From sequence record NZ_CP027237.1: a DNA stretch of 5,399 nt; one strand, 5' to 3'. Positions within the stretch are counted from its first letter, which is position 1. Every line of letters starts with the position of its first letter. The DNA comes from a plasmid. Of this stretch, positions 1 through 5,399 are shown in pieces. Under the pieces are notes generated by a model. It was not told the origin of the DNA, searched no databases, and saw only the letters and a list, made by a program, of their open reading frames with translations. Made by a program: the position numbers and the translations under genes.

Positions 1-64
1 TAGGCGGTGGCCCAGGGGGGGAGGAGCGCACCGGGCACGACCCGGTGGACCGACTCGCCGCACC

Positions 65-1192
65 TTGCCAGGGGCCGGGCAGGGCCCCGGCGTGGCAGGT
101 GCAGGCGAGTCGGTCCACCCGCGGTCGCTCCCGGGCTGGCTCGCTACCCCCCTGGCCACCGCCTACGACGTTGCCCTGCTGGATCTCGACGGCGTCTGCT
201 TCGCCGGCGACGCCAGGGTCCCCTACGCCGCCCAGGGCGTCGGCGGGGCCCGGGCCGCGGGCATGCGCCTGTCCTTCGTCACCAACAACGCCTCCCGGGC
301 GCCCGCGCAGGTCGTGGCCAAACTGGGGGCCCACGACATTGAGGGCCACCCGGAGGAGGTCTTCACCGCCGCCATGGACGCCGCCGCCATGCTGCGCGAG
401 CACCTGCCAGCTGGCTCCCTGGTCCTGGTGGTGGGAGGGGACGGGGTCCGCCAGGCCCTCCTGGACGAGGGCTTCCGGGTCACCAGCACCTCCGACGACG
501 ACCCCGCCGCCGTCGTCCAGGGCTGGGACCCCTGCGTGGACTGGGCGCTCCTGTCCGAGGGCCTGTACGCCATTACCAAGGGGGCCCTGCACGTGGCCAC
601 CAACCTCGACGCCACCCTGCCCACGGAGAAGGGCTTCGCCCTGGGCAACGGGAGCCTCGTGGCAGCCATTGCCAACGCCTCGGGCCGTACCCCGCTGGCC
701 GGTGGCAAGCCCTACCCGGGCATCTACGAGCGCGCCCTGGCCCGCGCCGGAGGGGTACGGCCCGTGGCCGTGGGCGACCGCCTCAACACCGACCACGTGG
801 GGGCCCGCGCCGCCTCCATCCCCGGCCTCCACGTCCTGACCGGGGTGTCCACCGCCCGTGACGTCGTCCTGGCCCCGCCCGCCGAGCGCCCCGCCTTCCT
901 GCACACCGACCTGCGCGGTCTCCTCCAGCCCCACCCCGAGCCGGTGCGCGTGGTCGTGGACGGTGACACGTGGTGGCAGGTCGGCCAGGAGCTGGCCCGC
1001 GTGGAGGCCGACCACCTGGTTCTGGCCCGTGCCCCGCGTCCCGGGGCCCGCCAGGACCTGACCGGGGCCGCCGCCACCCTGACCCTGGACGCCTACCGGG
1101 CCGCCGCCAGCGCCGCCTGGGCCCACGCGGACGAGGCGGGGCAGGAGGCCCTGAGCGTGCCCGAGCTGACGGTGGGCCCCCCAGGACCATGA
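65..1192 (+). CDS. HAD-superfamily subfamily IIA hydrolase/phosphatase (Rv1692/NagD-like)
   Basis: 375-aa ORF in frame 2. HAD motif I is DLDGV (..VALLDLDGVCF..), motif II is the Thr/Ser in SFVTNNAS, motif III is the Lys in GGKPYP, and motif IV is the acidic pair in VGDRLNTDHVGA. The track start is a TTG at 65, and an in-frame GTG at 92 is an alternative, so the true start is uncertain. The stop TGA at 1190-1192 overlaps the ATG of the next ORF. Confidence 0.8.
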   Translation: MPGAGQGPGVAGAGESVHPRSLPGWLATPLATAYDVALLDLDGVCFAGDARVPYAAQGVGGARAAGMRLSFVTNNASRAPAQVVAKLGAHDIEGHPEEVFTAAMDAAAMLREHLPAGSLVLVVGGDGVRQALLDEGFRVTSTSDDDPAAVVQGWDPCVDWALLSEGLYAITKGALHVATNLDATLPTEKGFALGNGSLVAAIANASGRTPLAGGKPYPGIYERALARAGGVRPVAVGDRLNTDHVGARAASIPGLHVLTGVSTARDVVLAPPAERPAFLHTDLRGLLQPHPEPVRVVVDGDTWWQVGQELARVEADHLVLARAPRPGARQDLTGAAATLTLDAYRAAASAAWAHADEAGQEALSVPELTVGPPGP

Positions 1193-1377
1193 CCTCCGAC
1201 GCCCTCCTACCACTCCGGGACCAGGTGGCCGCCCACCCGGTCCCGGGCCCGCTCCCACCCCGGATCCTGCAGGCGCGTGAGGGCGTGGAGGCCGCCGCGG
1301 GCCTGCCCCTGGCCAAACGGGCCGCCGCCCTCCAGGAGGTCCGTGCCATGCTGGAGGCCGCCCTGCAGGCGGACTGA
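1189..1377 (+). CDS. Small conserved hypothetical protein (62 aa; position-equivalent to mycobacterial Rv1693)
   Basis: ATG at 1189-1191 overlaps the HAD gene stop as ATGA (1189-1192), and the frame stays open to TGA at 1375-1377 (MTSDALLPLRDQ...EAALQAD). The longer 970..1377 track ORF would overlap the HAD gene out of frame, so the short form is preferred. Assignment rests on synteny and the overlap architecture only, with no recognisable domain. Confidence 0.45.
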   Translation: MTSDALLPLRDQVAAHPVPGPLPPRILQAREGVEAAAGLPLAKRAAALQEVRAMLEAALQAD

Positions 1378-1429
1378 GCCGCTGCACGTACACGCTCAAG
1401 GCCGGGCGCCGCCCGCCTGCCCCCACAGA

Positions 1430-1442
1430 CAGGAGAAGGAGG
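1430..1442 (+). promoter_or_regulatory. Shine-Dalgarno / RBS for tlyA (AGGAGAAGGAGGG)
   Basis: A purine-rich AGGAGAAGGAGGG stretch ends 4 nt upstream of the GTG start at 1446. It lies in the only real intergenic gap of the cluster (1378..1445). Confidence 0.6.
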
Positions 1443-1445
1443 GCC

Positions 1446-2303
1446 GTGGCCCGACTCATTCGCATTGACTCCGAGCTCGTGCGCCGCGGGCTGGCCCGCT
1501 CACGTACCCAGGCCGCCCAGATGGTCACCGACGGGCACGTCACCCTCGACGGCGTCGTGGTCACCAAGCCCGCCCGACAGGTCGACCCCGCCCAGGCCCT
1601 GGAGATCCGCGTCCCCGACGACGGGTACGTCTCCCGCGGCGCCCACAAGCTCGCCGGGGCCCTGGACGCCCTGGGCTCCCGTGGCCTGGCGCCCACCGTG
1701 CGCGGGCGGCGCTGCCTGGACGCGGGGGCCTCCACGGGGGGCTTTACCGACGTGCTCCTGCGCCGTGGGGCCGCCCACGTGACCGCCGTGGACGTGGGCT
1801 ACGGGCAGCTGGCCTGGTCCCTCCAGTGTGACCCGCGGGTCACCCAGCTGGACCGGACCAACGTGCGCACCCTCGACCCGGCCGCGGTGGCCCCCGCCCC
1901 CGCCCTGGTGGTGGGGGACCTGTCCTTTATCTCCCTGACCCTGGTCCTGGGCCCCCTGCTGCGGGCCGCCGCCCCCGACGCCGACCTGCTGCTCATGGTC
2001 AAGCCCCAGTTCGAGGTCGGCCGGGAGCGCCTGGGGCACGGGGGCGTGGTACGGGACCCCGCCCTCCACGTCGAGACCGTCCTGGTCGTCGCCGACCACG
2101 CCCACCGCCTGGGGGTGGGGATCGACGCGGTGACCGCCTCCCCCCTGCCCGGGCCCGCCGGCAACGTCGAGTACTTTGTGAACATGCACGCAGGCCAGGC
2201 AGGATCCTCCGGCGACCTCACCGGAGACGCCCTCACCCAGGAGACCCGTCGCGCCGTGGCCCAGGGGCCCGCGGGCGCCGGAGGCCGCAGGGGGCGCGTG
2301 TGA
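1446..2303 (+). CDS. tlyA: TlyA, 16S/23S rRNA (cytidine-2'-O)-methyltransferase (hemolysin A family)
   Basis: 285-aa ORF with a GTG start. It has an N-terminal S4-like RNA-binding region (MARLIRIDSELVRRGLARSRTQAAQMVTDGHVTLDGVVVTKPARQVDP), then an FtsJ/RrmJ-type SAM methyltransferase core (YVSRGAHKLAGALD, LDAGASTGGFTDVLLRRGAAHVTAVDVGYGQL, GDLSFISL, MVKPQFE). The C-terminal tail (~aa 250-285, Gly/Ala/Arg-rich) is ~15-20 aa longer than M. tuberculosis TlyA. The stop TGA at 2301-2303 overlaps the nadK GTG start. Confidence 0.9.
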   Translation: MARLIRIDSELVRRGLARSRTQAAQMVTDGHVTLDGVVVTKPARQVDPAQALEIRVPDDGYVSRGAHKLAGALDALGSRGLAPTVRGRRCLDAGASTGGFTDVLLRRGAAHVTAVDVGYGQLAWSLQCDPRVTQLDRTNVRTLDPAAVAPAPALVVGDLSFISLTLVLGPLLRAAAPDADLLLMVKPQFEVGRERLGHGGVVRDPALHVETVLVVADHAHRLGVGIDAVTASPLPGPAGNVEYFVNMHAGQAGSSGDLTGDALTQETRRAVAQGPAGAGGRRGRV

Positions 2304-3220
2304 GCATCCGCCGTATCCTCCTGGTCCAGCGCGACCTCAACGACCAGCCGGTCCCGCCCCACCGGCGGGGCGCCTCCGTGGCCGGGGCCGTCGCCCAGCT
2401 GGGTGAGATCTGCCGCTCCCAGGGCGTGGAGCTGATCACCCAGGACGAGCTGGTCACCGACCTGACCCAGGGCGCCAGCATCGACTTCGTCCTGGTCCTG
2501 GGGGGTGACGGCACCATCCTGCGGGCCGCCGAGCTGGCGCGTGAGCAGGACGTCCCCCTCCTGGGGGTCAACACCGGTCACGTCGGCTTCCTGGCGGAGG
2601 CCGACCCCGAGGCCCTGGAGCAGGTGGTCGCCGAGGTCGTGGCCGGACGCTACACGGTGGAGAAGCGCATGACCCTGCGCGTGGAGGTCGAGGCCCCTGA
2701 CGGCGCCGTCACCCGCGACTGGGCCCTCAACGAGACCGCGCTGGAGAAGCGTGACCGCGCACGCATGCTGGAGGTCGCTATCGGCGTGGACGGGCAGGCC
2801 GTCTCCTCCTTCGGCTGCGACGCCCTGCTCATCTCCACGCCCACCGGCTCGACCGCCTACGCCTTCAGTGCCGGCGGGCCGGTCATCTGGCCCGAGGTGG
2901 AGGCCCTGCTCCTGGTGCCGGTGGCGGCCCACGCCCTGTTCACCCGCCCCCTGGTGCTGGGTACCCACTCGACCCTGGAGGTCGTCATTAAGGACGCCGG
3001 GTTCGGCGCGGCCGAGATCTGGTGCGACGGGCGGCGCTGGCACGCGGTGCCCTCAGGATCCACCGTGCGCGTGACCCGCGCGACCCGGCCGGTGCGCCTG
3101 GCCCGGCTCAACGACGCCCCCTTCTCCCAGCGCCTGGTGCGCAAGTTCAACCTGCCCGTGTCGGGGTGGCGGGTCCCCGCCCGGGGGCCGCGCCGTGGTC
3201 AGGGGGAGAGGACAGCATGA
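2300..3220 (+). CDS. nadK: NAD(+) kinase (inorganic polyphosphate/ATP-NAD kinase)
   Basis: 306-aa ORF carrying the GGDGT motif (LVLGGDGTILRAA), NTGHVGFL (the NE/D short motif) and the conserved DALLISTPTGSTAYAFSAGGPVI segment. GTG at 2300 overlaps the tlyA stop as GTGA, and the stop TGA at 3218-3220 overlaps the recN ATG as ATGA. Confidence 0.9.
   Translation: MSIRRILLVQRDLNDQPVPPHRRGASVAGAVAQLGEICRSQGVELITQDELVTDLTQGASIDFVLVLGGDGTILRAAELAREQDVPLLGVNTGHVGFLAEADPEALEQVVAEVVAGRYTVEKRMTLRVEVEAPDGAVTRDWALNETALEKRDRARMLEVAIGVDGQAVSSFGCDALLISTPTGSTAYAFSAGGPVIWPEVEALLLVPVAAHALFTRPLVLGTHSTLEVVIKDAGFGAAEIWCDGRRWHAVPSGSTVRVTRATRPVRLARLNDAPFSQRLVRKFNLPVSGWRVPARGPRRGQGERTA
3201..3210 (+). promoter_or_regulatory. 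Shine-Dalgarno for recN (AGGGGGAGAGG)
   Basis: A G-rich purine tract lies 6-7 nt upstream of the ATG at 3217, inside the 3' end of nadK. Confidence 0.5.
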
Positions 3221-4997
3221 TCGAGTCCGTCCACATTGAGGACCTGGGCGTCATCCAGGAGGCGGACCTGGCGTTCGGGCCGGGGCTGACCGCCCTGACC
3301 GGGGAGACCGGCGCCGGCAAGACACTGGTCCTGACCTCCCTGGGCCTCCTGCTGGGACAGCGCTCAGAGAGCACGGTGGTGCGTCCGGGGGCCTCCCGCG
3401 CCCTGGTGGAGGGGACCTTCGTCCTGACCTCCGGGGGCCGTGCCGCCGACCGGGCCGTCCAGGCCGGTGCCGAGCTGGACGGGGACCTCCTCATCGCCTC
3501 ACGCACCGTGCCCGCCCAGGGGCGCTCACGCGCCCACCTGGGAGGGCGCTCGGTGCCGTCGGCCGTCCTGGCGGAGGTGGGCTCCGGCCTCGTGTCCGTC
3601 CACGGCCAGGCCGACCAGCTGCGGCTGCGCTCCTCCGCGGCCCAGCGTGCCGCCCTGGACCAGCTGGGGGGCGCGGAGCACGCCCGGCGCTGCCGGGACT
3701 ACGCCACGGCCTTCCGGGCCTGGCGGGAGGCCGCCGCCGCCCTGGCACGGTGGCAGGAGGGGGCGGCTTGGCCGGGCGGCGGAGGCCGAGCGCCTGCGTG
3801 CCTGGCTGGAGGAGCTGGAGCAGCTCGACCCCCGCCCGGGGGAGGACGCCGCCCTGGAGGCGGAGGCCGCCCGCCTGGACCACGCCGAGGACCTGCGCCG
3901 GGCCGTCAGCCGGGCACGCGGCGCCCTGAGCGCGGACGAGGCCTCCCAGACGGTCCTGGAGCCCGACGTCGTCGCCCTGGCCGCCGGTGCCGAGCGGGCC
4001 CTGGACAACCGCGGCCGGCCTGGATCCTGCCCTGGGGGACCTGGCCGCCCAGGTACGCCAGATCGGGATCCTCGCCGCCGACGCCGCCAGCGAGCTGGGC
4101 GACTACCTGGCCTCCCTGGACGCCGACCCGGTGCGCCTGTCCTGGGTCCAGGACCGCCGTAGCGCCTTAAGGAGCGCCTGCCAGCGGATCGGCGGGCCCC
4201 AGGAGCTGGAGGACGTGGACGCCCTGCTGGCCTGGGGGCGGCAGGCCAGCGCCCGCCTGGACCAGCTCGACGGCCCGCAGGACGCCGGGAGCCGGCTGGC
4301 GCGCCGACCTGACCGGGGCCCGCCAGGAGCTGGAGCAGGCCGCCGCCGACCTGACCGGGGCCCGCCAGGAGCTGGCCGAGCAGCTGGAGGCGGCCGTCAC
4401 CGCCGAGCTGGAGGGCCTTCAGATGCGCGGGGCTCGCCCTGGTCGTCGAGCTCACGCCCCTGGCCGAGCCCGGGCCCACCGGCGCCGAGACGGTCGCCCT
4501 GCTGCTGGCCGCCCACCCCGGCGCCCCGGCCCTGCCCCTGGGCAAGGGGGCCTCGGGCGGTGAGCTCAGCCGGATCATGCTGGCCCTGGAGGTCGTCCTG
4601 GCCCAGAGTGAGACGGACCCTCAGGAGGCGGGGCGCGGGGGCCCGGCTCACGGCCGCACCTTCGTCTTCGACGAGGTCGACGCCGGTGTCGGCGGCCGGG
4701 CGGCCCTGGAGGTGGGGCGGCGCCTGGCCCGCCTGGCGCGCAGCCACCAGGTGGTCGTCGTCACGCACCTGGCCCAGGTCGCAGCCTGGGCCTCCACCCA
4801 GCTCGTGGTCCTCAAGGAGGTGGACGCCGCCCGGGACGGGGCGCCCACCACCTCCACCCGGGTCGTCCCGGTGACCGGGCAGGACCGGCGTGCGCGAGCT
4901 CGCCCGCATGCTCTCAGGCCACGAGGACTCCGAGGCCGCCCTGCGCCACGCCGCTGAGCTCCTGGCTGAGGCGGGCGTGGCAGAATCCCTGACGTGA
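3217..4997 (+). pseudogene. recN: recN (DNA repair protein RecN, SMC-like ATPase) disrupted by five +1 frameshifts; possible pseudogene or sequencing-error cluster
   Basis: ATG at 3217 begins MIESVHIEDLGVIQEADLAFGPGLTALTGETGAGKT, which is the Walker A. The RecN-like sequence continues in frame 1 to ~3765 (..AWREAAAALARWQE). It moves to frame 2 (..RAAEAERLRAWLEELEQLDPRPGEDAALEAEAARLDHAEDLRRA..) and then to frame 3 from ~4015 (..LDPALGDLAAQVRQIGILAADAASELGDYLASLDADPVRLSWVQDRRSAL..). It moves to frame 1 at ~4302 (ADLTGARQELEQAAADLTGARQELAEQLEAAVTAELEGLQMRGAR) and to frame 2 at ~4438 (LVVELTPLAEPGPTGAETVALLLAAHPGAPALPLGKGASGGELSRIMLALEVV..TFVFDEVDAGVGG..VVVVTHLAQVAAWA.., carrying the signature and Walker B). 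It ends in frame 3 from ~4889 (VRELARMLSGHEDSEAALRHAAELLAEAGVAESLT*), with stop TGA at 4995-4997. The reconstructed length is ~590 aa, which is typical for RecN. No single frame is open across the gene. Confidence 0.75.
4302..4375 (+). repeat. 42-bp in-frame tandem duplication inside recN (32/32 nt identical copies at 4302-4333 and 4344-4375)
   Basis: cgccgacctgaccggggcccgccaggagctgg occurs twice at a 42-nt offset. In the RecN frame it encodes ADLTGARQELEQAA followed by ADLTGARQELAEQLEAA. The copies diverge immediately after gagctgg. Confidence 0.85.
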
Positions 4998-5399
4998 GGA
5001 ACCCCTTCCGCCGTCAGGAGGCGTCGACCCAGGAGCGGCCCAGTGGTGCCGTCCGGGTGGACGCGCGCACCAAGAAGCTCACCAAGAGGCTGCGTCCGGG
5101 TGAGATCGCCGTGATCGACCACACGGACCTGGACCGCGTCTCCGCGGAGGCGCTCGTGGAGTGCCAGCCCGTGGCCGTCCTCAACGCCTCGCCGTCGGTC
5201 TCCGGCCGCTACCCCAACCTGGGGCCGGGCATCCTCCTGGAGGCGGGCATCCCGCTCGTGGACGACCTCGGGCCGGACATTATGCGCCTGCGCGAGGGCC
5301 AGGAGGTCACGGTCGACGGCGCCCAGGTCATCCGCAAGGGCGAGATCCTCGCCGAGGGCGTGGCCCAGACCCGGCAGAGCGTGGACGAGGCCATGCAGG
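4994..5399 (+). CDS. steA: SteA/Rv1697-family protein (putative cytokinesis-associated protein), 5' partial, continuing beyond the window end
   Basis: The frame 2 reading frame is open from a GTG at 4994 to the window end (VRNPFRRQEASTQERPSGAVRVDARTKKLTKRLRPGEIAVIDHTDLDRVSAEALVECQPVAVLNASPSVSGRYPNLGPGILLEAGIPLVDDLGPDIMRLREGQEVTVDGAQVIRKGEILAEG...). The 'VNASPSVSGRYPNLGP' block and the preceding 'RID..D.LLRR..PGDIVV.D..DLDR..AEAL' pattern match my recollection of mycobacterial Rv1697 and corynebacterial SteA. It sits directly downstream of recN, as in those genera. The GTG start overlaps the recN stop as GTGA, and there is no convincing SD, so the start is tentative. Confidence 0.65.
   Translation, partial: MRNPFRRQEASTQERPSGAVRVDARTKKLTKRLRPGEIAVIDHTDLDRVSAEALVECQPVAVLNASPSVSGRYPNLGPGILLEAGIPLVDDLGPDIMRLREGQEVTVDGAQVIRKGEILAEGVAQTRQSVDEAMQ

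Follow-up and report, generated by a model that had tools for sequence, protein, structure and literature searches.

Gene content of the record and its chromosomal counterpart

The stretch analyzed here (the window, 5,399 nt) has a high-G+C actinobacterial composition and carries genes for a HAD-IIA hydrolase, a 62-aa ORF, TlyA, NAD kinase and RecN, after which only the first third of the SteA gene is present. Its features are the following, where L102 is a conspecific locus used for alignment.

1-167, no strand: garbled left end, an imperfect fold-back palindrome (inverted repeats, alignment to L102, other strains without the palindrome)
92-1192, plus strand: HAD-IIA hydrolase gene, AVM63041.1, first ~20 codons artefactual (exact protein match)
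1189-1377, plus strand: gene for a 62-aa hypothetical protein, AVM63042.1 here and AVM61110.1 on the chromosome (exact look-up)
1446-2303, plus strand: tlyA rRNA methyltransferase gene, AVM63043.1 here and AVM61111.1 on the chromosome (TIGR00478, 190.6 bits)
2300-3220, plus strand: NAD kinase gene, AVM63044.1 here and AVM62782.1 on the chromosome (NF002892, 373 bits)
3217-4997, plus strand: recN reading frame with five single-base insertions (translation, alignments, TIGR00634 on the corrected product)
4994-5399, plus strand: steA, of which the record contains the 5' third before it breaks off (NF040608, profile positions 2-121 of 369)

Two proteins tie the window to its source. AVM63041.1 (P0202) corresponds exactly to positions 92-1189 and is recorded only on a 5,399-nt record, its N-terminus being encoded nowhere but in the aberrant 5' end of the window; AVM63044.1, titled 'NAD kinase (plasmid) [Actinomyces sp. 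oral taxon 897]', corresponds to positions 2315-3217. The window is therefore a complete small record of this assembly, namely the entire 5,399-nt sequence that the depositors of the Actinomyces sp. oral taxon 897 assembly labelled a "plasmid". The accompanying chromosome measures 3,244,017 nt. The genome of Actinomyces sp. HMT-897 strain F0631 is available as CP027236 (PMC7651992).

Exact-sequence look-ups revealed that the 62-aa protein, TlyA and NadK each have two accessions in Actinomyces sp. oral taxon 897, one per record, and that the two sets fall in distinct series (AVM6111x/6278x against AVM6304x for the window proteins). The HAD hydrolase and RecN of the window also have counterparts on the chromosome; for the former (AVM62781.1, P0196), the difference from AVM63041.1 is confined to the N-terminus. 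This comparison with the chromosome was made at the protein level, with L102 as a proxy at the DNA level. Overlapping untrimmed ends of a circular chromosome were considered as the cause of the double accessions and were discarded, as the second copy is a separate 5,399-nt record.

Four successive gene junctions show 4-nt overlaps of the type ATGA or GTGA (1189-1192, 2300-2303, 3217-3220 and 4994-4997). Judging from their arrangement, they suggest translational coupling across the HAD / 62-aa ORF pair and across the tlyA-nadK-recN-steA cluster. Because of these overlaps, recN has no intergenic region of its own: its start codon overlaps the stop codon of nadK (ATGA, 3217-3220). No actinobacterial LexA box above chance level was detected in the window, which thus offers no support for the LexA regulation of recN put forward in the initial annotation. 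Also, the annotated start of the 301-aa NAD kinase (AVM63044.1/AVM62782.1) at 2315-2317 is ATC, and other gene calls place it at the GTG at 2300, giving 306 aa.

The recN reading frame as written and as corrected

Three-frame translation of positions 3217-4999 confirmed the initial description of recN as six frame segments in which the motifs are kept. RecN is readable only by passing through frames 1, 2, 3, 1, 2 and 3, in segments of approximately 3217-3768, 3769-4007, 4008-4298, 4299-4437, 4438-4887 and 4888-4997, with the stop codon at 4995-4997. All motifs are retained: frame 1 has GETGAGKT, frame 2 has both GASGGELSRIMLAL and FVFDEVDAGVGG, and frame 3 has ELARMLSG. Alignment placed the frame steps as follows.

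3768-3769, plus strand: insertion 1, T in the intact allele and TT here (L102 alignment)
4007-4008, plus strand: insertion 2, A in the intact allele and AA here (conspecific DNA including L102)
4298-4299, plus strand: insertion 3, G in the intact allele and GG here (conspecific DNA including L102)
4437-4439, plus strand: insertion 4, CC in the intact allele and CCC here (conspecific DNA including L102)
4887-4888, plus strand: insertion 5, G in the intact allele and GG here (conspecific DNA including L102)

All five steps are +1 and each doubles a neighbouring base. Four of them lie within the junction ranges first proposed from the letters; the first falls 2-3 nt to the right of its range, 3759-3766. 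They are clustered: five errors placed uniformly over 5,232 nt would fall within a span of 1,120 nt or less with P ~0.009. The upstream genes had been described as free of frameshifts, and this was borne out except for the first ~20 codons of the HAD gene, garbled by the left end of the record.

When one base was removed at each of positions 3768, 4007, 4298, 4437 and 4887, an ORF of 591 aa was obtained, all residues of which are identical to the chromosomal protein AVM61112.1 (P0150). The single uninterrupted recN ORF that is lacking in the window is thus found on the chromosome, so recN is intact in this strain. The suggestion that the organism is deprived of a double-strand-break repair factor was wrong. 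The corrected product scored 465.6 bits against TIGR00634 (cut-off 407.85), its residues 1-582 covering profile positions 1-562 of 563, and showed the architecture of RecN, with the N-terminal Walker A motif GETGAGKT, a long coiled coil, and at the C-terminus the ABC signature and Walker B (GASGGELS, FVFDEVD); Pfam SMC_N and AAA_23 are on record for conspecific RecN copies. It resembles bacterial RecN in being full-length, in its 62-69% identity to RecN of other Actinomyces species, and in its position within the conserved actinobacterial tlyA-nadK-recN-steA cluster. It differs in that the window gene as written cannot be translated into RecN, which is an artefact and not a property of the organism.

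There is no case for programmed frameshifting, as the five consecutive +1 steps share no motif and the allele is intact everywhere else. The products of the frameshifted ORFs (window 3217-4170, 3987-4871 and 4577-4954) had no exact match in a collection of 15 billion proteins. The coiled coil of RecN contains ADLTGARQEL twice, encoded by a 27-nt direct repeat (4306-4332 and 4348-4374) at a spacing of 42 nt. This repeat is also present in both intact conspecific RecN proteins that were aligned (P0150, P0121), and the region aligns without gaps to RecN of other Actinomyces species, hence involves no change of length.

Comparison with conspecific loci

The locus was compared with 28 conspecific loci (L001-L010 and L091-L108), of which 10 were contigs matching the NAD kinase, 3 came from a pattern scan of metagenomes, 10 from a TlyA look-up and 5 from a look-up of intact RecN; one of the latter is a longer stretch of the contig of L102. 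The gene order tlyA-nadK-recN-steA is common to all of them, and all carry the full steA gene (399 aa).

Many public contigs encode a NAD kinase identical to that of the window, and ten of them were taken with their flanks (L001-L010). Directly downstream of NAD kinase, an uninterrupted 591-aa recN was found in 10/10. By blastn, the window is ~99% identical to these ten loci and carries exactly five single-base insertions; past position 168, the other indels are in-frame strain polymorphisms present in some loci only. It had been anticipated that sister sequences with one base fewer at each of the five sites would mark a sequencing artefact, and this is what the conspecific loci display, in 28/28; none of the five insertions was found in any of them. 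The same is true of the chromosome of the same assembly, where AVM61112.1 equals the corrected window.

The closest view of the intact allele at the DNA level was given by L102, a SPAdes metagenome contig with a coverage of 23, whose HAD, 62-aa, TlyA, RecN and SteA proteins are exactly the chromosomal proteins of this strain. Between L102 and positions 168-5399 of the window there are 0 mismatches in 5,232 nt, and the two are identical base for base apart from the five inserted bases. The resulting spectrum (0 substitutions, 0 deletions, 5 single-base insertions) is not the one expected from neutral decay, in which substitutions exceed indels and deletions are no rarer than insertions.

Two loci showed variants of their own in recN. 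In L093 (ODVF01010395.1), a 13-nt deletion (GCCCCAGGAGCTG) in the region of window 4197-4209 shifts the frame, and the tblastn match is split over two frames, which may reflect either genuine variation or an error in the assembly. In L092 (coverage 2.2 according to the contig name), a 30-nt in-frame deletion in the region of window ~4238-4298 removes 10 codons of the RecN coiled coil and leaves the ORF single. Finally, a pattern scan across insertion 2, with the additional base optional, gave 0 matches in the genome contig collection, in which the species is apparently absent or masked, and a scan of the same collection based on NadK retrieved other species only, with no more than 77% identity.

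Left end of the record and origin of the frameshifts

At its left end, the window contains inverted repeats with arms at 1-19/147-165 and 44-70/93-119, so arranged that the first ~84 nt and the ~84 nt after them are imperfectly reverse-complementary. Positions ~41-146 are a deletion-riddled copy of the true chromosomal sequence: against L102, about 25 deleted bases and 2 mismatches were counted in the 87 nt of window 60-146. The palindrome was not found in the other strains compared, which have at this place an upstream gene of 230 aa that is missing from the window. Because of this garbled left end, AVM63041.1 has ~20 artefactual residues at its N-terminus. From its letters, the error density of this region appears to be that of a raw long read and not of a polished consensus. 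Fold-backs of this kind are typically left by chimeric or missed-adapter reads.

The remainder of the record was examined for plasmid characters. No replication, partition or mobilisation gene was found among the ORFs of the 5,399-nt record, all of which are chromosomal housekeeping genes (HAD, TlyA, NadK, RecN, SteA), and the repeat search of the window revealed no direct overlap or repeat joining the two ends as in a circle. Instead, the record ends on the left in a fold-back of itself and cuts steA on the right. A search of PLSDB with the whole window gave no match, which is weak evidence.

We conclude that the window is almost certainly a spurious long-read contig that doubles a chromosomal segment and retains residual consensus errors, and that it does not reflect pseudogenisation. 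The laboratory of F0631 is reported to produce its genomes by PacBio RS II/Sequel sequencing and HGAP assembly, a platform given for the laboratory and not for F0631 itself (PMC7651992). For this strain we infer the platform, as well as the exact origin of the contig. We propose that a spurious 5.4-kb contig arose in the PacBio/HGAP assembly of Actinomyces sp. oral taxon 897 strain F0631, duplicating the chromosomal HAD hydrolase, 62-aa ORF, tlyA, nadK, recN and the 5' part of steA. It would probably derive from very few aberrant fold-back reads, perhaps a single one, hence a poorly supported consensus. This poor support may have left both the raw-read-like, deletion-ridden palindromic left end and the five single-base insertion errors within 1.1 kb of recN. 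Against this reading, the five recN errors are clustered and are all insertions, whereas the left end has deletions; a local dip in read support is required, and it is to such a dip that we would ascribe the clustering.

Chimeric or fold-back 'missed adapter' reads assembled apart from the chromosome are a known class of artefact in PacBio HGAP assemblies. The window shares with them its nature of short chromosomal duplicate, a palindromic and error-rich end, single-base indels doubling their neighbour, and a laboratory using PacBio and HGAP. Unlike them, it shows no visible SMRTbell adapter sequence at the hinge, and most of it (168-3767 and 4889-5399) is error-free, which implies more than single-pass support over most of the contig.

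Two natural origins have to be weighed against this artefact. In the one, recN would have been lost recently in the strain or its lineage, by five +1 frameshifts that arose independently, and the deposited sequence, frameshifted with all motifs still encoded, would fit a very recent loss. Multiple frame breaks in a recognisable gene are also seen in the genuine frameshifted pseudogenes of host-restricted bacteria such as Mycobacterium leprae. However, real pseudogenes accumulate substitutions, deletions and in-frame stops beside frameshifts, and close relatives share their lesions, whereas the window has insertions only, without substitutions, the lesions appear in no other conspecific sequence, and an intact copy exists in the strain. 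The lesions thus do not lie in the sole genomic copy of the organism, since AVM61112.1, identical to the corrected window, is encoded on the chromosome of the same assembly. Substitutions normally outnumber indels about ten to one, and five indels with zero substitutions in 5,232 nt against the intact allele are vanishingly unlikely as natural decay. Of the two readings offered by the initial annotation, the cluster of assembly or consensus errors was the right one; a recent real loss of recN is refuted by AVM61112.1 together with the conspecific loci, and we give it practically no credence.

In the other, F0631 would carry a 5.4-kb extrachromosomal circle or duplicated segment on which a redundant recN is decaying. 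This agrees with the plasmid label given by the depositors, and a redundant recN would be free to gather frameshifts. Nevertheless, such an element would have no replication, partition or mobilisation gene, genes garbled or truncated at both ends, ends without a direct overlap pointing to a circle, a left end combining a fold-back with an error density resembling that of raw reads, and zero substitutions outside the indels; to this is added, as weak evidence, its absence from PLSDB. A real second copy is therefore highly improbable, if somewhat less so than the loss of recN. The particular form in which F0631 has a low-copy 5.4-kb excised or duplicated segment, with an insertion-inactivated second recN beside the intact chromosomal gene, is more doubtful still than a second copy in general. 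Overall, any natural origin is very hard to sustain: the 5.2 kb show five indels without a single substitution, all five indels are +1 insertions and unshared, and the strain has an intact copy.

The broken recN is not a real feature of the organism, whose RecN is intact, and the frameshifts have no biological significance. The value of the finding lies in curation: what is publicly available as a "plasmid" record repeats part of the chromosome and contains consensus errors, and in at least one of the proteins deposited with it, AVM63041.1, the N-terminus is artefactual. Mislabelled in this way, the record could mislead plasmid catalogues, pseudogene counts and scans for gene loss.
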